Source of the DNA: an uncultured archaeon
GTDB lineage: Archaea > Aenigmatarchaeota > Aenigmatarchaeia > Aenigmatarchaeales > Aenigmatarchaeaceae
Length of the DNA stretch: 34,089 bases
Direction of reading: 5' to 3'
Assembly (NCBI GenBank): GCA_964654075.1
Contig: CAZZIA010000001.1
Coordinates: 1 to 34,089 of the forward strand
Under the pieces are notes generated by a model. It saw only the letters and a list, made by a program, of their open reading frames with translations, was not told the DNA's origin and did no database searches. This document shows, in pieces, positions 4,265 to 27,246 of this stretch. Made by a program: the position numbers and the translations under genes. The stretch's first letter is position 1. The number at the start of each line of letters is the position of its first letter.

Positions 4265-4396
4265 TGGTGGACCCGCTGGGATTCTCAAAACCCTTTTGAT
4301 TAACTTTTTTCTAAAAGGTTATTTGAACCCAGGATCTCTTCCATGCCATTTCCGGATTTCTCCTAAGGAAGCGTCTTTCCGCTGGACCACGGGCCC
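4265..4396 (-). tRNA. tRNA-Ala(GGC), 2 introns (17 nt at 33/34, coordinates 4348-4364; 40 nt at 59/60, coordinates 4282-4321), CCA encoded
   Basis: Hand fold: GGGCCCG TG GTCC-AGCGGAA-AGAC G CTTCC TT|..|GGCAT GGAAG AGATC CTGGG TTCAAA|..|T CCCAG CGGGTCC A CCA. The G3:U70 Ala identity pair is present. The BHB central helices are TTCC/GGAA and TTCA/TGAG, each with 3-nt bulges. The spliced length is 75 nt. Confidence 0.85.
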
Positions 4397-6090
4397 TTAT
4401 AATTTTTATAAATTTTAAATAATTTATCCACTGTCCTTTTGTTTATTACCTTTATTTTATGACCACCGCTTCCATTAAAATGAGCACACCTATGACTTAA
4501 TACGGCGCCAGAAAATGTTTTTGGAATGTGACAATTATGAGTAAATATTCCAGAGCCGTGCATGAAATTTTTGTTTTTTTCTACCTCTATGTTATAGAAG
4601 TATTTTTTATGGTATTTCCCCCCTTTAACTCTCCTTATTCTAATGTATTTCAAATCTTTAAAGTTCTTTTCATGTTTCATTACCTTAATTTTTCTTATAT
4701 CTTTTTCCAAACCCCTATACTTAATAGCTAAATTACAATACTTCATAAATTTTGGTAAGAAAAATGTTTGTATGGCTATATCTTGCTCGTTTCTTCTTAA
4801 TCTGCCAACTATTTTTAATTTATTTAACAATAAAAGTATGCCGAAAATTAACTCTTTACTTTTAGAAAAGCCGGACAATACTATTGAGTTGGTTCTTTTA
4901 TTTATATTTATTTGGCCGTCTCCAGCAAACCAACCATCAATCAATCCTGCTATAAATTCATCAGGAGCATAAAAAACAAATGGTGGTATTTTTTTATATC
5001 GAGCCTTTTCGCCAAATCCTAATATATTGGATATTATATCTTGTAGAAATCTGCTATACACATATATAACTTTACAATTATTTTTAGTAGTTCTTTCCTT
5101 TGGATTTGCATTAAATCTCTTCTTTAGGACATATTTTATAAATTTATGATACTCTTTTTCATCTAGGTTAAAGCTAAATGAAACTGAACCTGCAGCATGA
5201 TCTATACTACCTTCACTCAAATAAAATCCGAAAAACCTTCCTAACTCATTATCCAGTATTAATTTTGATGGTATAACTGTAGATACGACGCCTTTCTTCA
5301 TTAACAGTCCATTTTCAATTTTTATTTCATCGAGTCTGTTTTTCTCTTTGAAAATGTTAAATAAGTTTATTTCTTTCACTTTTCTTTCAAGCTTCGGTAA
5401 AGAAAATAGTTCTGGTATTCTTATGTATAATTTTTCGTTTAAAATATCTTTAGCTGCACAATTTCTTAGTTTTACATAACCTTTAGGATGCTCATAAGAA
5501 TATCCGTGCTTTGTGAAAATAATGCCATGAGATGGGCTCGTTCTAATTATTCTACCATCTCTTGTAATTACCTTTATAATCTCTTTTTCTTTATTGTTTC
5601 TTCTCATTAATTTTTTAATACTTTTCATTTCAACTTTTCTTGTCTTAATGTCAATTGATATAACATTATATTTTTTTGAAGGATTTACCCATTCAATATT
5701 GTCTAATATATTTATTTTTTTAGCCAATTTAAACTCATTTTCTATGAGCTCGCCGATATCTTTGATTTTTAATCCCTCTCCATCCTCAATAACAATCTTC
5801 TCTTCATATGGAAGGCATAATTCATGTAACATCGTCTTCTGCTTCTCCTCTTCGCTCAATTCATCAAAGTTTTCGCTGACAGCCTCTATAACATAGTGGG
5901 CATCGACGCCCAAAGCCTTCTGCCATATTTTCGGCAACGACCATATCCGCGCATAAGCTCGGCTCGTGCTCTTGAAAGACCGCATGCACACCAGTCTGTC
6001 GACATCAATGTAATCTAGATTTAATTTTTTGACTATATCTTTGATAATTTCCTTTATGTCTGGCGCTGATTCGACTTTCATAAGAATCAT
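4363..6090 (-). CDS. predicted small Zn-metallopeptidase (HExxH, archaeal COG4900-like) interrupted by an intein
   Basis: The exteins (91 aa + 56 aa) read ...RAYARIWSLPKIWQKALGVDAHYVIEAVSENFDELSEEEKQKTMLHEL / CHIPKTFSGAVLSHR.... After splicing this gives HELCH. The last 34 nt of the ORF overlap the 5' part of tRNA-Ala on the same strand. Confidence 0.85.
   Translation of the reverse strand: MILMKVESAPDIKEIIKDIVKKLNLDYIDVDRLVCMRSFKSTSRAYARIWSLPKIWQKALGVDAHYVIEAVSENFDELSEEEKQKTMLHELCLPYEEKIVIEDGEGLKIKDIGELIENEFKLAKKINILDNIEWVNPSKKYNVISIDIKTRKVEMKSIKKLMRRNNKEKEIIKVITRDGRIIRTSPSHGIIFTKHGYSYEHPKGYVKLRNCAAKDILNEKLYIRIPELFSLPKLERKVKEINLFNIFKEKNRLDEIKIENGLLMKKGVVSTVIPSKLILDNELGRFFGFYLSEGSIDHAAGSVSFSFNLDEKEYHKFIKYVLKKRFNANPKERTTKNNCKVIYVYSRFLQDIISNILGFGEKARYKKIPPFVFYAPDEFIAGLIDGWFAGDGQININKRTNSIVLSGFSKSKELIFGILLLLNKLKIVGRLRRNEQDIAIQTFFLPKFMKYCNLAIKYRGLEKDIRKIKVMKHEKNFKDLKYIRIRRVKGGKYHKKYFYNIEVEKNKNFMHGSGIFTHNCHIPKTFSGAVLSHRCAHFNGSGGHKIKVINKRTVDKLFKIYKNYKGPWSSGKTLP
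4534..5817 (-). mobile_element. 428-aa class 1 intein with LAGLIDADG homing endonuclease domain
   Basis: N-terminal Cys (CLPYEEKIVIEDG, block A). Block B is GRIIRTSPSHGIIF. The LAGLIDADG motifs are LGRFFGFYLSEGSI and FIAGLIDGWFAGDGQI. Blocks F/G are YFYNIEVEKNKNFMHGSGIFTHN, followed by the +1 Cys. Codons at both junctions were checked by hand (TGC at 5817-5815; AAT TGT at 4536-4531). Confidence 0.85.
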
Positions 6091-6526
6091 AGTTGTTTTA
6101 GGAATATTATCGCATCTTTTCCTTTACCGAATCAATGTTTAACATGACCAACATCTTTGTAACCAACTTTCTTATGCCATTTAATTGATCCTTTATTTTT
6201 AGCATATGCATCGGTCAGTATTCTGCGATAACCCATTTTTTTCAATCTTTTGCAAGTTTCGTTGAAAAGAAATGTTCCAAACCCCTTCCCCGCATATCTT
6301 TTCTTATAACCAGCAACCAACTCCAGGCAGTCTCTCCCCAGCTCTCGAAAACAAATCTAGCCCCTATCAGCTTTCCTCTGTCCTCTAGTAACCACGTAAA
6401 TTCTGGATATTTCTCTATTAGATTTTTAATTAATTCCTTTTCAAACCAAAATTCTTCTTTAAAATCTTTAACACCAAGACTGTAAATATCGTTTATGTCA
6501 GATATTTTAGCATGCCGTATTTTCAT
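6087..6526 (-). pseudogene. GNAT N-acetyltransferase paralog, inactivated by a 1-nt deletion and a TGG->TGA change
   Basis: Track ORFs 6242..6553 and 6132..6320 are two frames of one gene roughly 50% identical to 3812..4252. The frame switches at ...RGRGL|GTFLF, where a G is missing in the run at ~6277-6278. The in-frame TGA at 6132-6134 aligns with Trp of the paralog (VKDWFNKGKDAIIF vs VKH*FGKGKDAIIF). The ancestral stop at 6087-6089 overlaps the ATG of the next gene. Confidence 0.8.
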
Positions 6527-6538
6527 AAAGATCACAAA

Positions 6539-6653
6539 TGGTGGGCCAGGCAAGATTTGAACTTGCGATATCTACCTTTCTTAGTGGTTTGTAAGGGTTG
6601 CACGTTTGCCATTAATGACAAACTTAGCGTCATAACCACTAGACCACTGGCCC
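6539..6653 (-). tRNA. tRNA-Val(UAC), 2 introns (27 nt at 29/30, coordinates 6598-6624; 12 nt at 37/38, coordinates 6578-6589), CCA encoded
   Basis: GGGCCAG TG GTCT-AGTGGTTA-TGAC G CTA|..|CC CTTACA|..|A GGTAG ATATC GCAAG TTCAAAT CTTGC CTGGCCC A CCA. The second intron has a perfect CTTA/TAAG central helix. The first has GTTTG/CAAAC plus a relaxed ACGC/GTGC helix. The spliced length is 76 nt. Confidence 0.8.
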
Positions 6654-6692
6654 TTTGCAAATTTTATTAAGTTTTGAAGTTATAAAAGCTTT

Positions 6693-7262
6693 ATGAAACT
6701 TAAAAGAGATTTCTATGCAAGAAATACGGAACTAGTGGCAAAGCAGCTGCTAGGAAAAATTCTTGCGTGTAAAACTTCAAAGGGAATTTGCAAAGGAAAA
6801 ATAGTTGAGACGGAAGCTTATTTTGGTAGCAAAGATCCGGCCTCACATGCATGGAAAATAACTCCAAGAAGCAAAATAATGCTTGGAAAGCCTGGCACAG
6901 CTTATGTTTATTTCACTTATGGTAATCATTTTATGTTTAATGCTGTGACAGAAAAATTAGGAAAGCCAGGAGCAGTTTTAATTAGAGCTATTGAGCCAAT
7001 AAAAGGAATTAAACTGATGCAAAAAAGAAGAGGAATAAAAGAAATAAAAAAACTTTGCAGTGGTCCTGGAAAGCTTACAAAATCTCTTGGGATCACAAAG
7101 TCGCAAAATGGTCTTGATTTAACAAAAAGCAGTTTGTACATAGAAACTGGACAAAAAGAAAGTTTTCAAATTGTTCGCACAAAAAGAATTGGAATTAAAA
7201 GAGGTAAAGAAAAGTTGCTCAGATTTTATATTAAAGGAAATGAATTTGTATCGAAAAGATAA
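6693..7262 (+). CDS. mpg: DNA-3-methyladenine glycosylase (Mpg/AAG family)
   Basis: 189 aa. FYARNTELVAKQLLGKIL, IVETEAYFGSKDPASHA and PGTAYVYFTYGNHFMFNAV are hallmark Mpg-family segments. Confidence 0.85.
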   Translation: MKLKRDFYARNTELVAKQLLGKILACKTSKGICKGKIVETEAYFGSKDPASHAWKITPRSKIMLGKPGTAYVYFTYGNHFMFNAVTEKLGKPGAVLIRAIEPIKGIKLMQKRRGIKEIKKLCSGPGKLTKSLGITKSQNGLDLTKSSLYIETGQKESFQIVRTKRIGIKRGKEKLLRFYIKGNEFVSKR

Positions 7263-7297
7263 TTTTGTAACTCAGAGTAGTGAATTATATTTAAATA

Positions 7298-7317
7298 TAA
7301 GTTATATGTATAACTTA
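7298..7317. promoter_or_regulatory. palindromic operator-like site overlapping the promoter of the 7320 gene
   Basis: TAAGTTATA-TG-TATAACTTA (9-bp arms) ends 2 nt before the ATG. An A/T-rich TATA-like stretch (ATTTAAATATA) lies just upstream. Confidence 0.35.
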
Positions 7318-7319
7318 GT

Positions 7320-7547
7320 ATGTTAAAAGAAAAATATCTATTTTTATCATTTGACATTCCTAGAGAAAAGGCTAGTTTCAGAGTCAAAATTTGGAGAAGG
7401 TTAAAGGAGATTGAAGCAAGGCAAAAACTTGGTTCTTATTGGATGCTTTCTTACTCAAAACAAAATCTAAACAATTTAAAAAAGATTGTTAAACAGATTA
7501 AAAAATCCAAAGGACGGGCTGAAATAATTGTTGGAAGATTGATTTAG
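7320..7547 (+). CDS. small ChrB-N-terminal/Cas2-like alpha/beta protein (hypothetical)
   Basis: 75 aa. YLFLSFDIPREKASFRVKIWRRLKEIEARQKLGSYWMLSY....GRAEIIVG follows the pattern of ChrB N-terminal-type domains (L-x-Y-x-hP-x-x-x-S-x-x-RV-x-hWR-x-L-x-x-x-GA-x-x-L-x-x-S-VW-x-LP ... G-G-x-A). Its stop overlaps the GTG start of the next gene (taGTG). Confidence 0.5.
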   Translation: MLKEKYLFLSFDIPREKASFRVKIWRRLKEIEARQKLGSYWMLSYSKQNLNNLKKIVKQIKKSKGRAEIIVGRLI

Positions 7548-8365
7548 TGAATAGTGCAAAATTTGATTTATCTAAAATTAAATTTAGTTGGACTGATAAA
7601 AGAAAGAAAATAAAATTGCCGGAAATGTTAACAGAAGAATTGGCAGAAGATATTGGAATTCATATTGGAGATGGGAGTATGTATCTAACAGGTCCAAACT
7701 TAAAAAGCTATGAAATGAGATATTCGGGTGATTCCACAGAAGATAAAGAACATTATATTAATCGAATAATACCATTAAAAGAAAGATTATTTAATAAACA
7801 AATAAATGGAAAGATATTAAATTTTAGAGGAAATGAATATGGATTTGTCATTTGCTCAAAAGCAATTTTTTATTTTTATACAAAAATTATACATATCCCT
7901 TCAGGCACCAAAACAAAAATAGCAGAAGTACCTAAAATGATAATGAAATCTAACAAATCTATTCAAGCTGCATTTATAAGAGGATTGTCTGATACAGACT
8001 TTTCATTAACGTTTAAAAGAAAAAGCACTAAACATAATTTAAATTATTATCCTATGATTACAGCAAATTTTGCAAGTAGAAAATTAGTTGATAATCTTCA
8101 AAAAATTTTAAAGGGTTTAAGTTTTAATGTTGTAATTCTAGATGGAATTAATAAGAGGTATAACAAACATTATCCAACTCATATAATTAACATAAATGGA
8201 AAAAGGAACTTAGAACTTTGGATGAAAATTATAGGTTTTAATAATCCAAAACACTTAACAAAATATTTGGTGTGGAAAAAATTTGGTTTTTGCCCACCAA
8301 GATTATCTCTGAAACAAAGAAAACAAATACTAACAGGAAATTTGGATCCATATAATTTTTATTAA
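7547..8365 (+). CDS. free-standing double-motif LAGLIDADG homing endonuclease-like protein (copy 1)
   Basis: 272 aa. Motif 1 is LAEDIGIHIGDGSMY and motif 2 is AFIRGLSDTDFSL, both retaining the acidic residue. It is a paralog of the 24.0-24.8 kb ORF. The stop lies 1 nt from the 3' end of the convergent tRNA-Ile. Confidence 0.8.
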   Translation: MNSAKFDLSKIKFSWTDKRKKIKLPEMLTEELAEDIGIHIGDGSMYLTGPNLKSYEMRYSGDSTEDKEHYINRIIPLKERLFNKQINGKILNFRGNEYGFVICSKAIFYFYTKIIHIPSGTKTKIAEVPKMIMKSNKSIQAAFIRGLSDTDFSLTFKRKSTKHNLNYYPMITANFASRKLVDNLQKILKGLSFNVVILDGINKRYNKHYPTHIININGKRNLELWMKIIGFNNPKHLTKYLVWKKFGFCPPRLSLKQRKQILTGNLDPYNFY

Positions 8366-8366
8366 A

Positions 8367-8516
8367 TGGTGGGCGAGGTGAGATTTGAACTCACGACATC
8401 TGGGAGTTTTAACTCTCACCAGTTTTTACGCCAGGTTGCCTTATAAGACTGGCGCTCCTTCAGGAACGTATTAACCTGGCTGAGCATCGGGAACACAAAC
8501 ATGTGTTTACCCGCCC
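8367..8516 (-). tRNA. tRNA-Ile(UAU), 4 introns (22 nt at 9/10, coordinates 8486-8507; 14 nt in the D-loop, 8459-8472; 17 nt at 38/39, 8424-8440; 19 nt at 45/46, 8398-8416), CCA encoded
   Basis: Exons: GGGCGGGTA | GCTCAGCCAGGTT | GGAGCGCCAGTCTTATAA | ACTGGTG | GTCGTGAGTTCAAATCTCACCTCGCCCACCA. These give a 78-nt class I cloverleaf with loop CTTATAA and variable loop TGGTC. Each intron has a 4-bp central helix flanked by 3-nt bulges: CGGG/CCCG, CAGG/CCTG, TTAT/GTAA and CTGG/CCAG. Confidence 0.75.
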
Positions 8517-8641
8517 ATCTTTATCCTCACCCAATAAGAATTTATTACTATGAATCAATTTAAAAATATGCATAAAGAACGGTTAATAAATTAGTTAGGA
8601 TATTTATACTTATTGAAATAATAAAATAATGAGGTGTTTTG

Positions 8642-9013
8642 ATGAAGCAGTTTGACGTATATGTTACAAAAAAAGTTGGTGCTCTAGCTGATGTTTGCGA
8701 GCTATTGGCAAAGTCTGCTATAAATATTAGAGCTATCTCAACTGACGGAAATACTATAAGACTTGTAACAGAAGATGAAAGAACAACAATGGATGCGCTG
8801 AAAAAAGCTAGACTAAATTTTACTGATTCTGATATTTTATCTGTAAGATTGATTGATAGGCCTGGGGAGCTTGCAAAAGTTGCCAGAGCTCTAGCAAGAG
8901 AAGGAATAGCAATAGAATCTGTGTATATATTAGATAGAGACAAAGAAAGAGGGGAAACAGAAATTGCACTAAAAGTTGACAATTTGGCAAAGGCAAAGAA
9001 AATACTCAAATAG
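8642..9013 (+). CDS. ACT-domain protein (tandem paralog 1)
   Basis: The ORF is about 123 aa from ATG 8642, with a GAGGTG SD upstream (the track starts at TTG 8639). Two ACT-like repeats are present: KKVGALADVCELLAKSAINIRAIS and DRPGELAKVARALAREGIAIESVY. Confidence 0.75.
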   Translation: MKQFDVYVTKKVGALADVCELLAKSAINIRAISTDGNTIRLVTEDERTTMDALKKARLNFTDSDILSVRLIDRPGELAKVARALAREGIAIESVYILDRDKERGETEIALKVDNLAKAKKILK

Positions 9014-9052
9014 ATTTAAATTCCTTTCTAACAAAATAATAATTGTGATTAG

Positions 9053-9445
9053 ATGAGGCAATTTGACATAAATGTGAAAAATAAACCTGGTGCACTGGCA
9101 GCTGTATGCGATGTAATAGCTAAAGGTGGGATTAATATAAAAGCGATATCCAGTGAGATGGGGGATTCTTCTAGTATTATTAAGATTGTAACAGACAATG
9201 AAACAGCTACTAGAAAGGTATTGCAGGATTCCGGAATAAGCTTTAATGAATATGAAATAATTGGAATTGAGTTAATTGACAGGCCAGGGGAGCTTGCAAG
9301 ACTAACAAAAGCTTTAGCTGAATATGGGGTTAATATTGAATCTATTTATTTACTTGACAAAAGAAAGGATATAACCAAGCTAGCTGTTAAAGTAGATCAT
9401 TTGGCTAATGCTATTAAAGCTCTAGAAAAAATGGAAAGAGGATAA
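9053..9445 (+). CDS. ACT-domain protein (tandem paralog 2)
   Basis: 130 aa with the same architecture as the previous gene: NKPGALAAVCDVIAKGGINIKAIS and DRPGELARLTKALAEYGVNIESIY. Confidence 0.75.
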   Translation: MRQFDINVKNKPGALAAVCDVIAKGGINIKAISSEMGDSSSIIKIVTDNETATRKVLQDSGISFNEYEIIGIELIDRPGELARLTKALAEYGVNIESIYLLDKRKDITKLAVKVDHLANAIKALEKMERG

Positions 9446-9513
9446 TTTAATAGAAAAATTTAAATACACTTAAATGTACATAATTCTTACATATTATTCT
9501 AAGAGGTGGTTAA

Positions 9514-11163
9514 ATGAATGGTCAGACAGCACAATTTGGCGGGCAACCTATACTGGTTTTGCCCGAAGGTACTTTAAGGACAATTGGAAAGGATGCGCAA
9601 CATAATAACATAGCTGCAGCAAAGGCTGTAGCTGATGCTGTACGAACAACTCTAGGTCCTAAAGGTATGGATAAAATGCTTGTTGATTCATTAGGTGATA
9701 TTGTAATAACAAATGATGGTGTTACAATTCTAGAGGAAATGCGTATTGAACATCCTGCCGCAAAAATGATAGTTGAAGTAGCAAAAACACAAGATGAAGA
9801 GGTTGGTGATGGCACAACAACTGCAGCAGTCCTTGCAGGCGAGCTTCTGAAAAAAGCTGAAGAGCTTCTTGATCAAAGTATACATCCAACTGTCATAACA
9901 AGAGGATTTAGACTTGCAAGGGAAAGGGCTTTAGAAATTTTAGCTAAAATGGCAAAGGATGTAAAACCTGATGATATAGAAACACTAAGAAAAATTGCAA
10001 TAACGGCAATGACAGGTAAATCTGCTGAAAGAGCATCTGAACATCTTTCTAATTTGACAGTAGACGCTGTAAAGCTTGTAACTGAAAAAGTAAATGGAAA
10101 GCTGGAAATTAATACTGATAACATAAAGCTTGAGAAAAAGCCGGGCGCTTCCTCAGAAGATACTGAGCTGATAAAGGGAATAATAATTGACAAAGAAGTT
10201 GTTCATCCAGCAATGCCTAAGCATGTAAAAAATGCAAAAGTTGCTATTCTTGACTGTGCACTTGAAATAGAAAAACCTGAAACTGATGCACAAATTAGGA
10301 TTACAAATCCTGAACAGCTACAATTGTTCTTAGATCAGGAGGATAAAATACTTAAACAAATGGCTGAGAAGGTTGCTAATTCTGGTTGCAATGTGCTATT
10401 TTGTCAAAAAGGAATAGATGATATAGCACAACATCATTTGGCAAAAAGGGGAATTTTAGCTGCAAGGAGAGTTAAAAAATCTGACGTTGAAAAGCTTGCA
10501 AGAGCAACTGGAGCAAAAATAATAACAAGCTTAGAAGATCTAACAAAGCAGGATCTTGGATTTGCAGGACTTGTTGAAGAAAAGAAAATTGCCGGAGAGC
10601 AAATGACATTTGTAAGGGAGTGCAAAGATCCAAAGGCGGTTTCAATCCTAATTAGGGGTGGTACAGAGCACGTTGTTGAAGAGGTTGAGCGGGCAATGGA
10701 AGATGCTATAGGTGGTGTTGCATCCGCAATAGAGATTGGCAAGGTTGTAGCTGGTGGAGGTGCACCTGAAGCCAAAGTTGCAAAGGGTCTTAGAGAATTT
10801 GCCCAATCTTTTTCTGGAAGAGAACAGCTAGCAATACTTGCATTTGCAGAAGCGATGGAAGTAATTCCAAGAACACTTGCTGAAAATGCTGGGCTTGACC
10901 CAATAGATATACTTGTTGAGCTAAGAGCAGCTCAAGATGAAGGAAAAGTAAACTCTGGTGTGGAAGTTTTTAAAGGCAAAATTTCCGATATGTGGGAAGT
11001 TGGTGTAATTGAGCCATTGAAAATCAAAACACAGGCCATAAAATCAGCTGCAGAGGCAGCAGAGCTGATATTAAGAATAGATGATATAATATCTGCTGGA
11101 AGACTTGAAAAGGGTCCACAAATGCCGCCTGGCGGGATGCCTGGAGCAGAGGGAGAGTATTAA
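9514..11163 (+). CDS. ths: thermosome subunit (group II chaperonin)
   Basis: 549 aa. Motifs [45 protein letters not shown] and a C-terminal GGMPG tail. Confidence 0.95.
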
Positions 11164-11208
11164 GTTTTTTAGCAATATTTATATATTAGCTTTGCTTAAA
11201 ATTTAGAT

Positions 11209-11715: not shown

Positions 11716-11716
11716 A

Positions 11717-11926
11717 ATGAAACAAAAATTAGTTGTAAAGATTGGAACAGTCCTAACAACGGTCTTAATAGCGATTGTAGCACTAATGACATTTAGCATT
11801 TTTGCATTATGGCCAATAGCGCAAAATTTCACAAACGCTTTGCTAACAGTTATGATAGCAGCGCAGTTATGCACAGTTGTAATATTAATATATATTTATG
11901 AAAAACTGGAGGGGAAGAAAAAATGA
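11717..11926 (+). CDS. small two-TM membrane protein
   Basis: 69 aa with two hydrophobic spans. It overlaps the next gene by 4 nt (ATGA). Confidence 0.5.
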   Translation: MKQKLVVKIGTVLTTVLIAIVALMTFSIFALWPIAQNFTNALLTVMIAAQLCTVVILIYIYEKLEGKKK

Positions 11927-12339: not shown

Positions 12340-12357
12340 AAATCGCAATACAATTTT

Positions 12358-19855: not shown

Positions 19856-19934
19856 AAATAATCAATTATATTCTAATTCGGCACAAAAAGAATTTAAATA
19901 TTAAATCTATTTTATAAATAGAACAAATGATTTT

Positions 19935-20411: not shown

Positions 20412-20415
20412 TAAC

Positions 20416-22233
20416 GTGGCTAAATTTAAGACAGCTGAAGAGCTTGGTGCAGAACAAAGAGAGATTTCAGTAGCTGAATTTTTCGAAAAAAATCGCCACT
20501 TGCTTGGGTTTGACAATCCTGCAAAAGCTCTGCTTATAGTTGTCAAAGAATGTGTTGATAATTCACTTGATGCATGCTGTGATGCAGGCATACTTCCAGA
20601 AATTTATGTAGAAATTAAAGAGCCTGCTGAAAATTTTAAATTGCTTTCTGATGGAGAAGAAGTTGGAAAGCTAATAAAGATAGAAGGGGAGTTTGAACTT
20701 ATAATTGAACATGAGATATTAAAACCAACAGAAAAATATGAGAAAAAAAATGGTTTTGTGTATGTCTTTGAGCATAACAAAGCTAAATATAAACTGTATC
20801 AAATTAAAAAAAATGATAAGGAGATGCTAAAGATAATGAGGGGTAGGGCCGAACTTAAACTAGTAAAAATATCTTCTAACCGCTTCTTAATTATAGTTGA
20901 AGATAATGGCCCTGGTATTGTTCCTGAACAGGTTCCTAGAGTTTTTGGCAAATTGCTTTATGGAAGCAAATTCTACAAACTAAGACAAAACAGAGGACAG
21001 CAGGGCATTGGTGTATCAGCTGCATGCCTCTATGCACAGCTAACAACAGGCAAGCCTATTACAATTTTAACAAGAACTGCCCAAAACAAACCTGTTCATG
21101 CCTTTAGGTTAAGAATCGATACAGCAAAAAATGAGCCAATAGTCGTTGAGCATAAAAATCTAAAGAATGGCTTTGGACAACATGGAACACGTATTGAGCT
21201 TGAGATAGAAGGCAAATATATTCAACGCTATCATTCTGTTGAAGAATATCTAAAACAAACTGCCATAACAAACCCGTATGCACATATTGTTTATACAACG
21301 CCAGAAAAGCAGAGAATTGAATTTAAAAGAACAGCAAACGAGCTACCAGTGCAGCCAGCCATAATAAAACCCCACCCGCTTGGAGTTGAGTTGGGGGCAT
21401 TTGAAAGAATGACAAAACTAACTGAAAGCCGTACTTTGGCTGGATTTCTAGCTAATGAATTTTGCAGAATTGGGCAAGGGACAGCGGGGCAGCTTTGCAA
21501 GCTTTCTGGCATAGGACAAAAAACAAGACCCAGCGAACTGGACCATAAACAAATCGATAGGCTTTGGAGAACTATGCAAACATTTAGCTTTACAAAACCT
21601 CCAACTACTTGTTTAAGTCCGATTGGAGAGAAAGAATTTGAAAATGGTTTGAAAAAGGAATATAAGGTTGATTTTGTTGCTGTTGTTAGTAGGCCGCCAT
21701 GTGTTTATCGCGGAATGCCATTTTTAATTGAGGTTGCAATTTGCTATGGGGGTGAACTACCACAGAACGAACCTGCCAATATTATGAGATTTGCGAATCG
21801 CGTTCCACTGCTATATCAGGCAGCCTCATGTGCTATAATGAAATCGCTTCAGCGAATTGAGTGGCGAAACTACGGCCTTGATAGATCGGGTTCGATGCCG
21901 GCTGGCCCGGCAATAATAGCTGTGCATATGGCATCTGTTTGGATTCCTTACACATCTGAAAGTAAAGAGGCGATCGATCCGTACCCAATTATTGTCAAAG
22001 AGATAAAACTCGCGCTACAGGATTGCGCAAGAAAACTTGGCCATTATGTGTCTGGTAGAAAGAGGGTTTATGCAGCACAGCAGAGGCAGTCACTGTTTGA
22101 AAAATATATACCTGAAGTTGCTGAAGCAATTTCAAAACTAGCTGAGACGCCAAAAGAAAGAATAAAGGAAGGGCTAGAAAAAATACTAAAAGAGGGTAAA
22201 ATTGTAGTTGAAACGGATAAAGATAAGGAGTGA
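20416..22233 (+). CDS. top6B: DNA topoisomerase VI subunit B, with an ~80-aa insertion in the GHKL domain
   Basis: GTG start, 605 aa. Motifs ISVAEFFEKNRHLLGFDNP, KECVDNSLDA (N box), VEDNGPGI (G1 box) and LLYGSKF, plus a transducer domain. Confidence 0.92.
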   Translation: MAKFKTAEELGAEQREISVAEFFEKNRHLLGFDNPAKALLIVVKECVDNSLDACCDAGILPEIYVEIKEPAENFKLLSDGEEVGKLIKIEGEFELIIEHEILKPTEKYEKKNGFVYVFEHNKAKYKLYQIKKNDKEMLKIMRGRAELKLVKISSNRFLIIVEDNGPGIVPEQVPRVFGKLLYGSKFYKLRQNRGQQGIGVSAACLYAQLTTGKPITILTRTAQNKPVHAFRLRIDTAKNEPIVVEHKNLKNGFGQHGTRIELEIEGKYIQRYHSVEEYLKQTAITNPYAHIVYTTPEKQRIEFKRTANELPVQPAIIKPHPLGVELGAFERMTKLTESRTLAGFLANEFCRIGQGTAGQLCKLSGIGQKTRPSELDHKQIDRLWRTMQTFSFTKPPTTCLSPIGEKEFENGLKKEYKVDFVAVVSRPPCVYRGMPFLIEVAICYGGELPQNEPANIMRFANRVPLLYQAASCAIMKSLQRIEWRNYGLDRSGSMPAGPAIIAVHMASVWIPYTSESKEAIDPYPIIVKEIKLALQDCARKLGHYVSGRKRVYAAQQRQSLFEKYIPEVAEAISKLAETPKERIKEGLEKILKEGKIVVETDKDKE

Positions 22234-22237
22234 TGAT

Positions 22238-23320
22238 ATGGAAAAATCTGAGGCAAAAGATAAATTAAAAAATGTTGGCAAAAAGCTTGTTCAAGATATT
22301 GAAGCTAAAAAGAATCCTAATTTTGATATTCCTATCCGCACGCTATCAAATATTATGTATGACCAAAGGACAAAGTTTATAACCTTAGGAAACAAAACTG
22401 CAAAAAGGTATTTCTTTAATGTTGCCCATGTCAAACCTTTCCTTCAAACAACTGAGATTGCTGCCACAACAAAGGAACTGCTGGATGTAAGCAAACACCT
22501 AAGCTTGAGAGAAGTTTTTTATAGAATCAAAAGAACACTACCAGGTACTAATATTAATATCGTAGATGAGCAAACAGAATCAAACAAAGCAATCGAAGAT
22601 TTAGAGTTAATAACGCAACTCTCAAGGGAACAACTGCATATTAATGCAAACAAAATGGGTTCTGTTGCTGGAAGGGTTATTATCATAGATAAGGGAGATG
22701 TTGTTAATTGGGCCAAGCTTGGATCTGGTGGTTGGTCAATCCCATCTAATGTTGAGGATATAAAGTTCAAAAAAGTTAATGCAAAATTTGTTATATATGT
22801 GGAAAAAGCTGCTGAATGGGAAAGGTTGCATGAAGATAAAGTATGGGACAAGTTAAATTGTATAATTATGAGTTCCCAAGGCCAAGCAACTAGGGGAATT
22901 CGAAGATTGCTACAGAGATTGCACATAGAGCATAAACTTCCAATTTATGTTTTAGTTGACCTCGATCCATATGGATGGTATATTTATTCTGTTCTAAAAT
23001 TTGGATCAATTAGCCTTGCACATATGTCTGAAAAATTAGCTATTCCTGATGCAAAACTTTTGGGGCTAACTGTTGATGATGTCGGGAAATACGGTCTGAA
23101 AAGACACTTAATAAAATTTGAAGATGTTGATAAAAAAAGAATTAAGCAGATGGCAGATTACGAATGGTTTAAAAATAATAAAGCATGGCAAAGACAATTT
23201 AAAATGATGTGGGAACTTAACGCAAAAGTGGAGCTAGCAGCTCTAACAAGCAAAGGAATTTCATTCATTTCTGATGTATATATACCTGAAAAAATAAAAA
23301 ATAAAGAATGGTTAGATTAA
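22238..23320 (+). CDS. top6A: DNA topoisomerase VI subunit A (Spo11 family)
   Basis: The start is taken at MEKSEAK (ATG 22238), after an AGGAGTGAT SD and just past the top6B stop. The catalytic region is LSLREVFYRIK and the Toprim segment is YVLVDLDPYGWYIY. Confidence 0.92.
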   Translation: MEKSEAKDKLKNVGKKLVQDIEAKKNPNFDIPIRTLSNIMYDQRTKFITLGNKTAKRYFFNVAHVKPFLQTTEIAATTKELLDVSKHLSLREVFYRIKRTLPGTNINIVDEQTESNKAIEDLELITQLSREQLHINANKMGSVAGRVIIIDKGDVVNWAKLGSGGWSIPSNVEDIKFKKVNAKFVIYVEKAAEWERLHEDKVWDKLNCIIMSSQGQATRGIRRLLQRLHIEHKLPIYVLVDLDPYGWYIYSVLKFGSISLAHMSEKLAIPDAKLLGLTVDDVGKYGLKRHLIKFEDVDKKRIKQMADYEWFKNNKAWQRQFKMMWELNAKVELAALTSKGISFISDVYIPEKIKNKEWLD

Positions 23321-23326
23321 AGCAAT

Positions 23327-23563
23327 ATGTCAATTGCTTTGATTGCTGATATACATTCTATCTTGAGGCGTGGAAGCTGTTCTTGATAAAATAGAAAATG
23401 TTAATATTTTATGCGCTGGTGATATTATTGGCTATGGTGAATACTAATAAAAAAAATAATAAATTTAAAACGAGTTAACTATGATATCAAGAAAGTTGCT
23501 AGAAATATAATAAAAGCTGGACTGCCTACATGTTTAGCAGAATGGTTGTATAGTGGAATTTGA
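23327..23563 (+). pseudogene. decayed remnant of a small metallophosphoesterase (MJ0936/YfcE-like) gene
   Basis: MSIALIADIHS matches the D-x-H motif. After a frameshift the sequence continues ..VEAVLDKIENVNILCAGDIIGYGEY*, which contains the GD motif. A short C-terminal piece (..YDIKKVARNIIKAGLPTCLAEWLYSGI*) follows after an internal gap. Confidence 0.5.
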
Positions 23564-23596
23564 AATATGTAATTCGATATAGAAATCTTTAAATAA

Positions 23597-23614
23597 TATA
23601 GACACGTGTCTATA
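23597..23614. promoter_or_regulatory. perfect 18-bp palindrome (operator-like) between the TATA-like box and the start of the wHTH gene
   Basis: TATAGACAC|GTGTCTATA lies immediately downstream of CTTTAAATAATA and 3 nt upstream of ATG 23618. Confidence 0.45.
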
Positions 23615-23617
23615 ATT

Positions 23618-23857
23618 ATGAAACAAGTTAATGAGAAAAAGGTACAAAAGATTTTGAAAGTATTAGCAAGGTCTAAACAAAAATTATGGATTAGAGAAAT
23701 CGCCAGAAGAACAAAATTAAGTCCAGGGATTGTAAGTCATTACATTAATACAGCTTTAAGAGATAAAGTAAAAATATCACATGGTAAATTTGCCTTTCAA
23801 GATATAACTTTTGTAGAGTTGAAAGAGGGACGAAAAAATGAGATATTTAAAATTTAA
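23618..23857 (+). CDS. small winged-helix transcriptional regulator
   Basis: The ORF is about 79 aa from ATG 23618; the GTG at 23606 used by the track lies inside the palindrome. KILKVLARSKQKLWIREIARRTKLSPGIVSHYINTAL is a typical HTH (ArsR/TrmB-like). Confidence 0.6.
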   Translation: MKQVNEKKVQKILKVLARSKQKLWIREIARRTKLSPGIVSHYINTALRDKVKISHGKFAFQDITFVELKEGRKNEIFKI

Positions 23858-23883
23858 ATACATATTAAAGAAAATAAACTCAT

Positions 23884-24018
23884 GCCCGAGTAGCTCAGAG
23901 GAAGAGCGACTGGCTGTTAGCAAAATGGCTGGAACCAGTAGGTCACTTATGGATAAGTTAAGTGCTTTCCATAGATCAAAGGTTCGAAATGTGGACGGAG
24001 ATCCTGTCTCGGGCGCCA
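23884..24018 (+). tRNA. tRNA-Asn(GUU), 3 introns (14 nt at 37/38, coordinates 23920-23933; 33 nt at 50/51, 23947-23979; 13 nt at 59/60, 23989-24001), CCA encoded
   Basis: GCCCGAG TA GCTC-AGAGGAA-GAGC G ACTGG CTGTTA|..|A CCAGT AGGTC AC|..|AGG TTCGAA|..|T CCTGT CTCGGGC G CCA. The G73 discriminator is present. The BHB central helices GGTC/GATC and TTCG/CGGA restore a perfect ACAGG/CCTGT T-stem and a TTCGAAT loop. The spliced length is 75 nt. Confidence 0.85.
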
Positions 24019-24806
24019 TTTTAAATCTTTCTGCTATTAAATTTAGCAGAAATGATTTAAGAAGAAAAATTGTTCTACCAAAATTTATTTCAGAAGATCT
24101 TGCAGAAAACGTAGGTGTTCTTATTGGAGATGGCTCAATTTATATTTCCAATCACGATTACAATATTGTATATAGTGGAAATTTAGTGGAAGATAGATAC
24201 TATTTTGAAAACTATTTAGTTCCATTAAATAAGAGACTTTTCAATATTTTATTTAAAAACATTATTTACCATAATGAGTTTAGGCTTTATATACGATCTA
24301 AAGCCCTTTTAACTTTTTATAGTAAGGCTATAGGACTTCCATTAGGCTTAAAAAGTAATATCACTATCCCAAGAAAAATTTTGAGGTCTAAAAGTTTAAT
24401 TACTCATTGTATAAGAGGGATAATGGATACTGATTTTTCCTTATCATTTAAATCTAGGAAAAAATATCACTCATACCCTGTTATTTCTGCTTATTTTAAA
24501 AGTAAAGCACTTGTAAAACAATTAGAAAATTTATTAAAAAAATTAAACTTTAAAGTTGTATTAAATTACGATTATGAAAGAATTGACAAAAGAATTAAAA
24601 ATGGTAAATTTATATCTCAAGCAATTTATTTGAACGGAAAACAAAACTTAGAATTATGGTGGAATTTAATAGAAAGTCGTAATCCGAGACTTGTTACAAG
24701 ATACTTAATTTGGAAAAAATTTGGCTTTTGCCCTCCCTATACAAATATGCAACAAAGAATAAATATACTAAAAGGTAAGATCAACCCTAAAGAATTTTAT
24801 AAATAA
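23991..24806 (+). CDS. free-standing double-motif LAGLIDADG homing endonuclease-like protein (copy 2); start uncertain and located inside the tRNA-Asn gene
   Basis: Similarity to copy 1 begins at ..LNLSAIKFS (24022 onward). Motifs are LAENVGVLIGDGSIY and HCIRGIMDTDFSL, with a shared C-terminus NP..T.YL.WKKFGFCPP. No ATG/GTG/TTG occurs in frame between the tRNA end and motif 1. The in-frame candidates are GTG 23991, ATG 23949 and ATG 23925, all within tRNA introns. The track ORF extends back to 23838. Confidence 0.75.
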   Translation: MDGDPVSGAILNLSAIKFSRNDLRRKIVLPKFISEDLAENVGVLIGDGSIYISNHDYNIVYSGNLVEDRYYFENYLVPLNKRLFNILFKNIIYHNEFRLYIRSKALLTFYSKAIGLPLGLKSNITIPRKILRSKSLITHCIRGIMDTDFSLSFKSRKKYHSYPVISAYFKSKALVKQLENLLKKLNFKVVLNYDYERIDKRIKNGKFISQAIYLNGKQNLELWWNLIESRNPRLVTRYLIWKKFGFCPPYTNMQQRINILKGKINPKEFYK

Positions 24807-24809
24807 GCA

Positions 24810-24835
24810 TTGAGTCCGACTCCGGGCGCCATTTT
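24810..24835 (+). repeat. orphan tRNA 3'-end fragment / direct repeat of the tRNA-Asn 3' end
   Basis: TTGAGT CCGAC TCCGGGC G CCA TTTT reads as a degenerate T-loop, T-stem 3' strand, acceptor 3' strand, G73 and CCA. CGGGCGCCATTTT (24823-24835) is identical to 24010-24022. Confidence 0.6.
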
Positions 24836-24844
24836 GTGATTTAA

Positions 24845-25351
24845 ATGAATCTTGTCAAAAAAATAAATACTGAGTTGCAGAATGAAATAGCTAAATATAA
24901 CTCTGAAATTGCTAAAGCTATGAACGCTGTTATAGAGTTTCCAGTAGATTTTTTATTCGAAATCAAGCCAAATATTCCATTAGATAAAATAGCTGAATAT
25001 GCAAATGCAAATCCTGAAGCTGCTGCTAATAGCTATCTTACATATGCATTTAGCGCATTGCAAAATGAAAATTATAAATATGCAAGAAAATTTTTTAAAT
25101 TGGCTAAGTGCTGTTTAGAAAGGACAAAATATCTGCACTTAAAAGAACTACAGGTAATTGTGAGGCATCCAAAAAAGTCTGCCGAATTGCTAAAAGGCAG
25201 TATAGAAATTTATACTAAGAAGAATAAAGAATTAGTAAATGAATATAAAATGCAAAAAGCGGAAGCTGACAAAATAGTTGAAGAAAGTATTATAAGGTTG
25301 TTAGACAGAAAGGAAAATGAAAAGGAGAAATGGCAGACATATATTATGTAA
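24845..25351 (+). CDS. hypothetical helical protein
   Basis: 168-aa ORF with a GTGAT SD 4 nt upstream. No family motif was recognised. Confidence 0.55.
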   Translation: MNLVKKINTELQNEIAKYNSEIAKAMNAVIEFPVDFLFEIKPNIPLDKIAEYANANPEAAANSYLTYAFSALQNENYKYARKFFKLAKCCLERTKYLHLKELQVIVRHPKKSAELLKGSIEIYTKKNKELVNEYKMQKAEADKIVEESIIRLLDRKENEKEKWQTYIM

Positions 25352-25361
25352 ATGTGTTTGA

Positions 25362-25958
25362 ATGAAAGAGAAGGAATTATTTGAATTTTTAGAAAGTATT
25401 GTAAATCTTAAGTTAACTGCAAGGACAGGTTGGATTGGTAGGAAAGTTCCTAAACCTTTAGAAACTATAGCATCACATAGTTTTGGTGTTGTACTCATTT
25501 CTTGGATTTTAGCTGAGGGAAAGAAAGTTGATAAAGATAAAATTATAAAAATGGCTCTTATACATGATTTAGCTGAGGCATATTGTGGTGATATAACAGC
25601 ATATGCTGAAAAATATTCAATAGAGATGGGGCTAGAAGAAAAAATTTTGAAGGATAAAAAGAAAGTGGAAAGAAGTGTTTTAAAAAGGGTAATAAAACCT
25701 TTGGATGAGAATTTGCAAAAACAGATAACTCGGCTGTTTAACGAATTTGAAGAACAAAAAACACAGGAAGCAAAAATCGTTTATCTAGCTGATAAAATTG
25801 ATGAACTTTTTCAAGTTTTCTATTACAGAAAAGCTGGAGGTGGGAAAAGGCTGAAGGAATTCTACGACTGGTTCAAAAGGCACAAAATTTTTAATAAGAA
25901 CTTGCCCGAAAAATTTTTTAAATATGTAATGGTAAAGGATAGTAAATTAAGTAAATAA
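25362..25958 (+). CDS. HD-domain hydrolase (YfbR/HDDC2-like 5'-nucleotidase family)
   Basis: 198 aa. RTGW......ETIASHSFGV, the HD motif ALIHDLAEAYCGDIT, and a later D in YLADKIDE. Confidence 0.8.
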   Translation: MKEKELFEFLESIVNLKLTARTGWIGRKVPKPLETIASHSFGVVLISWILAEGKKVDKDKIIKMALIHDLAEAYCGDITAYAEKYSIEMGLEEKILKDKKKVERSVLKRVIKPLDENLQKQITRLFNEFEEQKTQEAKIVYLADKIDELFQVFYYRKAGGGKRLKEFYDWFKRHKIFNKNLPEKFFKYVMVKDSKLSK

Positions 25959-25995
25959 TATATTTTAAATATTATAATTTTAAATCAATTGTTAT

Positions 25996-26118
25996 GGGGT
26001 AGTAGCTCAGACTGGGAGAGCGCACGAGGATGCTATCCTGCGAAGCTGAAGACCGTGAATGGGATGCTTGGCATCTCATCGGGAAATGTCGTGAGTTCAA
26101 ATCTCACCTACCCCACCA
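25996..26118 (+). tRNA. tRNA-Phe(GAA), 2 introns (18 nt at 30/31, coordinates 26027-26044; 28 nt at 43/44, coordinates 26058-26085), CCA encoded
   Basis: GGGGTAG TA GCTC-AGACTGGGA-GAGC G CACG|..|G CTGAAGA CCGTG |..| ATGTC GTGAG TTCAAAT CTCAC CTACCCC A CCA. Intron 1 has a textbook BHB: CGCA/TGCG central helix, CG|A and AA|G bulges, and a GGAT/ATCC inner helix. Intron 2 has a 9-bp inner helix plus ACCG/CGGG. The spliced length is 77 nt. Confidence 0.85.
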
Positions 26119-26122
26119 AAGG

Positions 26123-26128
26123 TTTTTT
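26123..26128 (+). terminator. oligo-T run downstream of tRNA-Phe
   Basis: A TTTTTT run begins 5 nt after the CCA end, matching the archaeal oligo-T terminator pattern. Confidence 0.45.
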
Positions 26129-26151
26129 AATCTTAAAAAGTAATTCTAATT

Positions 26152-26706
26152 ATGTTCGTTCGTATTGTCCCGGCAGGAAATATAGCTCCAAAAATTCTAG
26201 AGTTGGTATGTGCTGGACTTGAAGAAGTGCTAAACTCGAGATGTAGAATACTTCAAAAAGTACAAATACCAAAAGAAGCGTGGGATCACTGGAGAAGGCA
26301 ATATGATGCTGAAAAAATACTAGAGAGCCTCGTAGACACTGGTGCTGCAAAGTTCATAGACAAATCAATACCAACAATAGGCATAACAGATGAAGATATA
26401 TATTATAAGGGATTAAACTTTGTATTTGGGCTTGAAGAACCAGCTACAGGTTGTTGCATAGTATCGATTGCTAGACTAAAGCAGGAATTTTATGGCCAAA
26501 GTTCAAATATGGGGCTTTTAGTTGATAGGACTGTTAAAGAAGTTATACATCAAATTGGCCACCTTTTTGACTTAAGTCACTGCCAATACCCAACATGTGT
26601 GATGTGCTTTTCACCATCAGTAAACGACGTTGACAATAAGCAAAAGTATTTTTGTGACAACTGTAAAATTAAAATAGCGAGAAAAGGTATCAGGATGTCT
26701 GATTAA
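26152..26706 (+). CDS. amzA: archaemetzincin (peptidase M54)
   Basis: 184 aa. HQIGHLFDLSHC (HExxHxxGxxH-type with Q in place of E, plus Cys), followed by C..CVMCF and CDNC zinc-binding cysteines. Confidence 0.85.
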   Translation: MFVRIVPAGNIAPKILELVCAGLEEVLNSRCRILQKVQIPKEAWDHWRRQYDAEKILESLVDTGAAKFIDKSIPTIGITDEDIYYKGLNFVFGLEEPATGCCIVSIARLKQEFYGQSSNMGLLVDRTVKEVIHQIGHLFDLSHCQYPTCVMCFSPSVNDVDNKQKYFCDNCKIKIARKGIRMSD

Positions 26707-27246
26707 ATGACTGAAGGTAAACTTGTAGAAGATAAAGTAATTATCTGGGATATAGAAGGTGGGAAAGAAATTTATGAAACTGCATATTATGGCAAACTAA
26801 AGGAAGATAGGCTAGAGCTGGCATTGATAGAGGCATGCTTGCTTTTAGAAAGGCAGAAAATTGACATATTGGACGAAGATGGCAAAAAAATGAAATTTGA
26901 TAAATTTTTTCATTATTGCTGCAAAATTGATAAAAGATTTGTATCTAGATATGTTGTGTATAAAGATTTAAGGGAAAGAGGATTACCAGTAAGGACTGGA
27001 TTTAAATTTGGATGTGATTTTAGAGTTTATGAAAGAGGTGTAAAGCCGATAAAGAGGGGGCCAAAAGCACCTGGCGAGCACACAAAATGGATTGTATTTG
27101 CTGTTTCAGAAGATTATACGTGCTCATTTCATGAACTTTCAAGGGCTGTAAGACTTGCCCACAATATCAGAGCAAACATGCTATGGGCGATTGTTGATGC
27201 GGATTTAGATGTTACATATTATACAGTAACATTTACCAGACCTTAG
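26707..27246 (+). CDS. endA: tRNA-splicing endonuclease EndA (179 aa, alpha4-sized), atypical active site
   Basis: YVVYKDLRERGLPVRTGFKFGCDFRVYERG...GEHTKWIV...AVRLAHNIRANMLWAIVDADLDVTYYTVTF aligns along its length with the M. jannaschii EndA sequence as I recall it. Tyr and His of the triad are present. The Lys position reads Ala. Confidence 0.9.
   Translation: MTEGKLVEDKVIIWDIEGGKEIYETAYYGKLKEDRLELALIEACLLLERQKIDILDEDGKKMKFDKFFHYCCKIDKRFVSRYVVYKDLRERGLPVRTGFKFGCDFRVYERGVKPIKRGPKAPGEHTKWIVFAVSEDYTCSFHELSRAVRLAHNIRANMLWAIVDADLDVTYYTVTFTRP

Follow-up and report, generated by a model that had tools for sequence, protein, structure and literature searches.

The window analysed in this work is a stretch of 34,089 nt from an uncultured archaeon of the Aenigmatarchaeota (GenBank assembly GCA_964654075.1, contig CAZZIA010000001.1, positions 1 to 34,089 of the forward strand). 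It carries five tRNA genes, all of them interrupted by several short inserts, a gene for the tRNA-splicing endonuclease EndA, and two putative genes for free-standing LAGLIDADG homing endonucleases. When the raw window was searched with ARAGORN, no tRNA was called, and the Rfam tRNA model gave only three matches (33-48 bits) with big unaligned insertions inside each. The five loci (Ala-GGC, Val-UAC, Ile-UAU, Asn-GUU and Phe-GAA) were found by scanning for a 7-bp acceptor stem followed by a discriminator base and CCA, and a scan for T-arm and D-arm signatures outside the open reading frames (ORFs) revealed no additional tRNA gene in the window. The intron option of ARAGORN was tried on the unspliced genes and discarded because of miscalls (Val as Asp, Phe as Ala).

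The inserts were evaluated with a bulge-helix-bulge (BHB) rule, i.e., a central helix of 4 bp, a 3-nt bulge on each strand and a cut after bulge nucleotide 2, and junction shifts were allowed only where the spliced product stayed identical. The genes and their introns are listed below, with the number of central pairs out of four; the strict form of the motif, hBHBh', has both flanking helices of at least 2 bp.

4265..4396, minus strand: tRNA-Ala(GGC), G3:U70, encoded CCA, two introns
4348-4364, minus strand: Ala intron 33/34, 17 nt, 4/4 central pairs, strict hBHBh'
4282-4321, minus strand: Ala intron 59/60, 40 nt, 4/4 central pairs, strict hBHBh'
6539..6653, minus strand: tRNA-Val(UAC), encoded CCA, two introns
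6598-6624, minus strand: Val intron 29/30, 27 nt, 3/4 central pairs, inner helix of 8 bp
6578-6589, minus strand: Val intron 37/38, 12 nt, 4/4 central pairs
8367..8516, minus strand: tRNA-Ile(UAU), encoded CCA, four introns, each with 4/4 central pairs
8486-8507, minus strand: Ile intron 9/10, 22 nt, 4/4 central pairs
8459-8472, minus strand: Ile intron in the D-loop, 14 nt, 4/4 central pairs
8424-8440, minus strand: Ile intron 38/39, 17 nt, 4/4 central pairs, 3' end GTAAAA
8398-8416, minus strand: Ile intron 45/46, 19 nt, 4/4 central pairs
23884..24018, plus strand: tRNA-Asn(GUU), encoded CCA, three introns
23920-23933, plus strand: Asn intron 37/38, 14 nt, 3/4 central pairs
23947-23979, plus strand: Asn intron 50/51, 33 nt, 4/4 central pairs
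23989-24001, plus strand: Asn intron 59/60, 13 nt, 4/4 central pairs
25996..26118, plus strand: tRNA-Phe(GAA), encoded CCA, two introns
26027-26044, plus strand: Phe intron 30/31, 18 nt, 4/4 central pairs, strict hBHBh'
26058-26085, plus strand: Phe intron 43/44, 28 nt, 3/4 central pairs, inner helix of 9 bp

BHB introns in the five tRNA genes

Once the 13 inserts of 10-40 nt had been cut out in silico (two each from the Ala, Val and Phe genes, three from Asn and four from Ile), all five genes were recognised by ARAGORN as normal cloverleaves, namely Ala-GGC, Val-TAC, Ile-TAT, Asn-GTT and Phe-GAA. Under the BHB rule, 49 of the 52 possible central-helix pairs were formed. Ten introns showed all four pairs, each in a single register, and the remaining three (Val 29/30, Asn 37/38 and Phe 43/44) showed three of four in their best register. 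When the helix halves were permuted among the introns, none of 100,000 permutations reached 49 pairs, and mismatched partners formed on average 1.7 pairs of four. The introns occupy 11 positions, 9/10, the D-loop, 29/30, 30/31, 33/34, 37/38 (twice), 38/39, 43/44, 45/46, 50/51 and 59/60 (twice), and only two of the 13 are at the canonical one. In all these respects, i.e., the numbers of introns, genes and positions, the list of positions, the interruption of every tRNA gene of the window more than once, the share of canonical introns and the restoration of cloverleaf elements by the BHB rule, an earlier interpretation made from the letters of this DNA (the sequence-only reading) was reproduced. 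The results confirm, at the level of sequence, that the 13 inserts are archaeal BHB-type introns, mostly with relaxed motifs, and we infer that these segments are removed by cleavage and ligation.

Orthologous tRNA genes and intron turnover

More than 1,200 homologues were retrieved in a search with the window EndA, and those with a taxon name belong to Candidatus Aenigmatarchaeota or other DPANN archaea; an exact-match query of the contig index with this EndA gave no hit. A close relative of this EndA is encoded in 148 GTDB species genomes, and 80 loci, each from a different assembly, were fetched for comparison (related-genome loci are denoted by L-numbers below). In the 80 loci, tRNA-Asn and tRNA-Phe genes are mostly found just upstream of EndA, and the gene order Asn-Phe-(M54 peptidase)-EndA recurs throughout the phylum, with or without introns in the tRNA genes. 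The suggestion that the introns and the nearby EndA gene are encoded side by side as one system is therefore not upheld, as this order is conserved regardless of introns.

Among the Phe and Asn orthologues, 62 of 86 (72%) bear introns, from one to five per gene, and 24 are intron-less. The highest loads were observed in L053, where the Phe gene has five introns and the Asn gene four, and in L060, with four in the Asn gene. The 112 introns of these orthologues occupy more than 25 positions, and 100 of them have at least three of the four central pairs. The intron-less genes show the very architecture predicted for the spliced Phe and Asn genes of the window, including the anticodon stem CACGG/CCGTG, the variable loop ATGTC and the T-loops. 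The spliced Phe sequence agrees with 19 intron-less orthologues, and the spliced Asn sequence with the intron-less Asn genes of L011, L031, L047, L056 and L076; the Asn introns at 50/51 and 59/60 were seen again in orthologues. For tRNA-Ile, the 5' third of the L084 gene is uninterrupted and reads GGGCGGGTAGCTCAGCCTGGTTGGAGC, which is the window product minus the 9/10 and D-loop introns, and this gene also confirms the unusual G that ends the Ile D-loop. The 38/39 intron ending in GTAAAA is common to the Ile genes of the window, L082 and L086, and L084 likewise has an intron at 45/46. The Val orthologue of L082 has introns at 29/30, with the same 3-bp helix plus mismatch, and at 37/38, as well as a third one. 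At position 30/31, all 15 orthologous introns form four of four central pairs with seven different exon tetramers (CAAC/GTTG, CACA/TGTG, CACC/GGTG, CGCA/TGCG, CGCC/GGYG, CGTC/GGCG and CGTT/GATG). This is compensatory covariation of the predicted central helix with the exon sequence.

Intron sets differ even between close relatives. L081 encodes an EndA 96% identical to that of the window, yet its tRNA-Asn introns lie in the D-arm and at 37/38, and those of its tRNA-Phe interrupt the acceptor stem at 4/5 and the region of about 43/44, so that neither set equals that of the window. Similar intron sequences were found at other sites and in other tRNAs: the Asn 59/60 intron of L036 resembles the Asn 15/16 intron of L044, the Asn 59/60 intron of L019 resembles the Phe 59/60 intron of the same locus, and the Phe 30/31 intron of L040 resembles the Ala 59/60 intron of the window. 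A hairpin with the pattern CCTTTCTT-NNNN-AAGAAAGG is found in many of the longer introns, and whole families of introns recur at differing positions (for example L036 Asn 59/60, L044 Asn 15/16, L032 Asn 59/60, L070 Phe 37/38, and L019 Asn and Phe 59/60). The shared hairpin and the recurring families suggest a mobile intron family. Judged by the loci compared, the tRNA intron load is a phylum-wide trait with fast turnover.

Two further features of these tRNA genes concern the CCA end and the Ile anticodon. A 3' CCA is encoded in five of five window genes and is absent from many orthologues (L012, L023, L031 and others). The AUA-decoding tRNA-Ile of the window and of its orthologues in L082, L084 and L086 has its anticodon encoded as UAU, not CAU; a genomically encoded UAU anticodon in tRNA-Ile is otherwise known from Nanoarchaeum and Korarchaeum.

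EndA and the homing-endonuclease genes

Three protein genes located near the tRNA genes are considered here.

26707..27246, plus strand: EndA (tRNA-splicing endonuclease), 179 aa, Pfam tRNA_int_endo_N (PF02778) and tRNA_int_endo (PF01974)
7547..8365, plus strand: free-standing LAGLIDADG homing-endonuclease gene (putative), 272 aa, stop codon 1 nt from the 3' end of the opposite-strand tRNA-Ile gene
24021..24806, plus strand: paralogous LAGLIDADG homing-endonuclease gene (putative), directly downstream of tRNA-Asn

The EndA gene starts 590 nt downstream of tRNA-Phe, with the M54 peptidase gene directly upstream of it. Its best matches are the alpha4 EndA of M. jannaschii (1a79, full-length, E 1.6e-33) and the catalytic subunit of N. 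equitans. Alignment to the solved structures 1a79, 3iey_A, 5x89 and 4fz2 showed that the catalytic Tyr and His are kept (Y108 and H125; the reference triad of M. jannaschii is Tyr115/His125/Lys156), while A156 stands where all four solved enzymes have the catalytic Lys (K156 in M. jannaschii; Lys133 in the N. equitans protein, PMC2761253). The description of an alpha4-sized EndA with an altered triad in the sequence-only reading was thus accurate, but the alteration is not peculiar to this genome: the Lys position is Ala or Ser in 120 of the 120 closest homologues, and where a relative has two EndA genes, the catalytic one shows the alteration as well. Since the canonical Lys is replaced across the clade, catalysis must do without Lys156.

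Between Tyr and His the window enzyme has 16 residues instead of the 9 of M. jannaschii, with an insertion at G111-G123 (GVKPIKRGPKAPG) that aligns with those of NEQ205 (GVIPKKGKRSEREH) and ARMAN-2 (GAKPIKENNEWIH); this allows us to identify it with the L3 loop of Kaneta et al. (2018). K116, G118 and K120 within it are conserved across the 120 closest homologues. In a wider set of 150 cluster representatives, the loss of Lys156 is confined to the relatives of the window EndA, most of which have a long Tyr-His loop carrying G-[PQE]-K and the others shorter loops, and position 120 is Lys in the clade without Lys156 and Arg in L3-bearing enzymes with Lys156. K120 may therefore be a candidate replacement for the catalytic Lys. 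An acidic L10-like motif, VDADLDVTYY, aligns with VDADGDIVYY of M. jannaschii (in the alignment, VDADLDVTYYTVTFTRP against VDADGDIVYYNMTYVKP).

A broad EndA profile matched the window once, and no second EndA-like ORF was found there. The same kind of search in the fetched loci revealed a tandem second EndA gene immediately upstream in 16 of 80 genomes (L005, L007-L011, L016, L019-L021, L026, L027, L029, L038, L063 and L080). The upstream copy is devoid of the His and the Lys and has a short loop, but keeps the acidic DNDxDVTYY motif; the downstream copy has the Tyr, the His, Ala156 and L3, and has lost the acidic L10 motif. Every single-copy EndA, including that of the window, contains D-x-[DE]-x-x-x-T-[YF]-Y, the sole exception being L025, whose locus is truncated at the 5' end. 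The tandem pairs look like the products of an alpha4 ancestor that was subfunctionalised to (alpha-beta)2 in some lineages of the phylum, and on this reading Ala156 belongs to the catalytic subunit. The alternative view of A156 as a mark of a non-catalytic beta subunit was rejected, because the copy with His and L3 has A156 as well and it is the other copy that is degenerate.

The two remaining ORFs are paralogous (phmmer 3e-63), and each has a sub-threshold match to Pfam LAGLIDADG_3. Their 106 homologues are spread over Aenigmat-, Nano-, Woese- and Diapherotrites archaea, many with LAGLIDADG_3 or Hom_end matches. An AlphaFold (AF2) model of the 7547-8365 product has a predicted local distance difference test score (pLDDT) of 94.6, and the best Foldseek matches of this model are the homing-endonuclease domain of the TliVMA intein, I-Tsp061I and I-DmoI, with TM scores of up to 0.78. 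Within the family, G41-D42-G43 are invariant and D149-T150 nearly so (motifs GDG and D-T-D). Both ORFs are thus predicted to have the two motifs with acidic residues and the double alpha-beta-beta-alpha-beta-beta-alpha fold that define LAGLIDADG enzymes. Both genes sit in intergenic space, not within an intron or intein, and group I introns as their source were rejected, as no Rfam match was obtained. From the end of tRNA-Asn to the conserved N-terminus, the ORF at 24021-24806 has no ATG, GTG or TTG (window positions 23989-24030), and its sole in-frame start is a GTG within the Asn 59/60 intron, which would imply co-transcription and overlap of tRNA-Asn and the endonuclease gene.

In all 14 distinct loci examined, a tRNA gene lies 0-90 nt from the endonuclease gene. 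The neighbour is tRNA-Ile(UAU) in L082-L087, a multi-intron tRNA gene in L088-L090, Asn and/or Ile(GAU) in L091-L096, and Phe or Asn in L005, L018, L041, L049 and L058. The cassette of L082 lies between 20-nt direct repeats (TAATGGGCGGGGAGAGATTT; at about 2426-2445 and 3320-3339) whose sequence is that of the final 17 nt of tRNA-Ile with 3 nt added, and L086 has a degenerate copy of the first ~25 nt of tRNA-Ile upstream of the endonuclease gene (at about 2420-2450). These remnants suggest insertion into a tRNA gene whose intact copy was restored. Unlike in L082 and L086, no partial tRNA duplications were found flanking the two endonuclease genes of the window. L081 contains, at 2599-3366, a second type of LAGLIDADG ORF with no BLASTP similarity detectable to those of the window. 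No description of the endonuclease-tRNA adjacency was found in the searchable literature. A similar placement is that of SegB of phage T4, a free-standing homing endonuclease in a tRNA gene cluster, and I-DmoI and I-Tsp061I, LAGLIDADG enzymes encoded by archaeal BHB introns, share the fold of the window ORFs. The window genes, by comparison, reside outside any intron or intein, and they belong to cellular archaea rather than to a phage.

Explanations and precedents

The best explanation of these data, which we hold with high confidence, is that the tRNA genes of this AT-rich Aenigmatarchaeota archaeon are intron-riddled chromosomal genes whose BHB introns are cut by an alpha4-type EndA and are evolutionarily fluid. 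Pre-tRNAs would be transcribed with two to four introns each, and exon bases just upstream of the 5' splice site would pair with the last intron nucleotides to form the 4-bp helix with its two 3-nt bulges. EndA would cleave within both bulges, and an RNA ligase of the RtcB type (not in the window) would join the exons into a normal cloverleaf with encoded CCA. A single kind of EndA subunit would serve both roles, the catalytic one through Tyr/His and the structural one through the acidic L10/C-terminal motif. The L3 insertion beside the catalytic His has previously been correlated with cleavage at non-canonical intron positions, and a basic residue of this loop, with K120 as the candidate, may stand in for the missing Lys. 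Over short evolutionary times, introns would come and go and would shift from one site or tRNA to another. The window EndA is probably self-sufficient, being the sole subunit of an alpha4-type homotetramer; how its subunits assemble, what L3 and K120 contribute and how the introns move are points that we infer.

Several observations weigh against this explanation. In a scan for strict hBHBh' motifs only three of the 13 introns passed (Ala 33/34, Ala 59/60 and Phe 30/31); the other ten, without an inner or outer helix, correspond to relaxed hBH or HBh' forms. The BHB appeared in the minimum free energy (MFE) fold of the whole gene for one of 13 introns, and the full central helix in the local MFE fold for four of 13, the BHB-constrained folds lying 0-3.9 kcal/mol above the local MFE. 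The 43/44 intron family has only two of four pairs in five orthologues. M. kandleri EndA loses its activity when the equivalent Lys is mutated to Ala (PMC5829648), so that an enzyme with A156 is not obviously active alone, and the count of one EndA covers only 34 kb of the genome, elsewhere in which a second subunit may lie. Since the BHB folds are within 0-3.9 kcal/mol of the local MFE, we attribute the disagreement with the MFE folds to the limits of the energy model and do not count it against the introns. As an intron finder, the strict hBHBh' criteria turned out to be too narrow, recovering three true introns and several false ones. If the interrupted loci were decaying pseudogenes or assembly artefacts, with functional tRNAs encoded elsewhere, then it would be natural for ARAGORN to miss all five and for Rfam scores to be as low as 33-48 bits. 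Such loci would hardly yield perfect cloverleaves in five of five cases with identity elements such as the G3:U70 of Ala, nor would their helix halves covary and the same architecture recur in independent assemblies from many samples; moreover, the window contains no uninterrupted tRNA. We consider the pseudogene or artefact explanation highly improbable. It is also possible to regard the window EndA as one subunit of a heteromeric (alpha-beta)2 enzyme, which would need a structural or a fully catalytic paralogue outside the 34-kb window. The tandem genes of 16 of the 80 relatives, the missing canonical Lys and the classical association of heteromeric enzymes with non-canonical introns (PMC5829648) are in line with such a paralogue. 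However, it is the M54 peptidase and not a paralogue that directly precedes the window EndA, the broad profile matches the window once, and the acidic L10-type motif is kept in single-copy EndAs (bar the 5'-truncated L025) and lost in the catalytic copies of two-gene genomes. In addition, the 80 loci represent 80 assemblies, so that no genome contributed a second close copy. A heteromeric enzyme is therefore improbable here, and the homotetramer is preferred.

The question of what drives the intron load is separate. It may be driven by mobile DNA that targets tRNA genes (LAGLIDADG endonucleases, integrating cassettes), either because an intron that breaks the recognition site protects the gene or because introns co-convert with the endonuclease gene ("collaborative homing"). 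The adjacency of LAGLIDADG and tRNA genes in 14 of 14 distinct loci, the predicted fold, which fits homing endonucleases encoded by archaeal BHB introns, the directly repeated tRNA-Ile 3' end around the L082 cassette, the degenerate 5' fragment in L086, and the rapid turnover with related introns at new sites are all consistent with this. Yet this is a correlation only: some endonuclease-adjacent tRNA genes are intron-less (e.g., Ile-GAU in L093 and L095), the intron position is inconsistent relative to the endonuclease gene, and many intron-rich tRNA genes have no endonuclease gene nearby, which makes a mobile-DNA origin of the load rather unlikely in our estimate. Equally tentative is a joint reading, in which an arms race with endonucleases that recognise intron-less tRNA genes would have been combined with a shift of the catalytic Lys from position 156 to Lys120 of L3. 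If the arms race is real, the L3-loop EndA would make BHB introns tolerable at any site, and these introns would immunise the gene or spread by co-conversion.

Highly interrupted tRNA genes are known from other archaea. In Thermoproteales there are on average 0.84 introns per tRNA gene; the highest total given is 71 introns in 46 genes, and a single gene has "up to three" (tRNAscan-SE 2.0 paper, PMC8450103). Like the window, Thermoproteales (Pyrobaculum, Thermofilum) have short BHB and relaxed-BHB introns at many non-canonical positions, several per gene, and, like the Aenigmatarchaeota, they show related introns at different sites (intron transposition) and an endonuclease insertion loop tied to broad specificity. 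They differ in having an (alpha-beta)2 EndA whose Tyr/His/Lys triad is intact and whose insertion is the Crenarchaea-specific loop (CSL, or L1) at the N-terminal side, whereas the window has a single alpha4-like gene with L3 and no canonical Lys. Their reported intron density is lower than the 13 introns in five genes of the window and the up to five per gene of its relatives, and they differ in lineage and lifestyle from this AT-rich DPANN archaeon. In the Asgard lineages Atabeyarchaeia and Freyarchaeia, 92-95% of tRNA genes contain introns (Valentin-Alvarado et al. 2024, PMC11291895), more than half of them several, mostly at non-canonical positions, and several four-intron genes are tabulated there (PMC11291895). 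Four introns per gene as a record was rejected for this reason. Asgard archaea belong to another superphylum, their EndAs have the L1 loop and not L3 (Kaneta et al. 2018, PMC5829648), and no Lys-less triad is reported for them; the density in the window (2.6 per gene) and the five-intron Phe gene of L053 are slightly higher.

Within DPANN, L3-bearing alpha4 EndAs in several lineages accompany an increased disruption of tRNA genes (Kaneta et al. 2018, PMC5829648). The L3-loop enzymes described comprise the (alpha-beta)2 NEQ205/NEQ261 of N. equitans, the epsilon2 enzyme of ARMAN-2 and the alpha4 enzymes with L3 of Pace-, Woese- and Nanohaloarchaea (PMC5829648). The DPANN trend was noted in that work, in which no Aenigmatarchaeota were analysed (PMC5829648), and our search of the literature on tRNA introns of Aenigmarchaeota and DPANN found nothing more specific. 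The L3 enzymes of N. equitans and ARMAN-2 keep the catalytic Lys (NEQ Lys133, PMC2761253; "RK" in ARMAN-2), while Ala, Ser or Thr takes its place in the Aenigmatarchaeota clade, and N. equitans has mainly split tRNA genes, unlike the multi-intron genes of the window. Hence, of the claim that the combination seen here is exceptional, only a part stands: the combination is real and extreme, but alpha4 L3-bearing EndAs with disrupted tRNAs are known from DPANN (PMC5829648), as are up to four introns per gene from Asgard archaea (PMC11291895). The kind of system is already known, and it is neither a new category nor made a dedicated system merely by a nearby EndA.

What is new is the lineage, the Aenigmatarchaeota, with 13 introns in five genes and a relative in which one gene has five introns, together with three features read from the sequences: an L3-bearing, alpha4-like EndA that lacks the canonical catalytic Lys throughout its clade, an apparent in-phylum transition from alpha4 to (alpha-beta)2, and putative homing-endonuclease genes flanking tRNA genes. 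This extends hyper-intronised tRNA genes to a phylum where their density is locally at or above published maxima. Standard tRNA finders miss most such genes, which inflates tRNA gaps in DPANN bins and distorts inferences of completeness and auxotrophy. A natural Lys-to-Ala clade of EndA with in-phylum subfunctionalisation makes it possible to test directly, by mutagenesis, what the catalytic Lys and L3 do, and the LAGLIDADG-tRNA adjacency gives a handle on the old proposal that tRNA disruption protects against, or stems from, mobile elements targeting tRNA genes.

The rest of the window (G+C 29-38%) is AT-rich and densely coding, with archaeal housekeeping genes for an eRF1-like protein, the thermosome, topoisomerase VI A and B, aIF-1A and NMD3, three aminoacyl-tRNA synthetases, pilus ATPase and platform proteins, an archaemetzincin and a rhomboid protease. 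An ORF of 575 aa on the minus strand (4363-6090) has a phage-metallopeptidase-like N-terminus split by an intein with a LAGLIDADG domain (Pfam), and the first 34 nt of tRNA-Ala lie within the 3' end of this ORF. At 23327-23475, between topoisomerase VI A and tRNA-Asn, the short frames MSIALIADIHS... and ...NILCAGDIIGYGEY, with stop codons between them, look like a decayed metallophosphoesterase gene.

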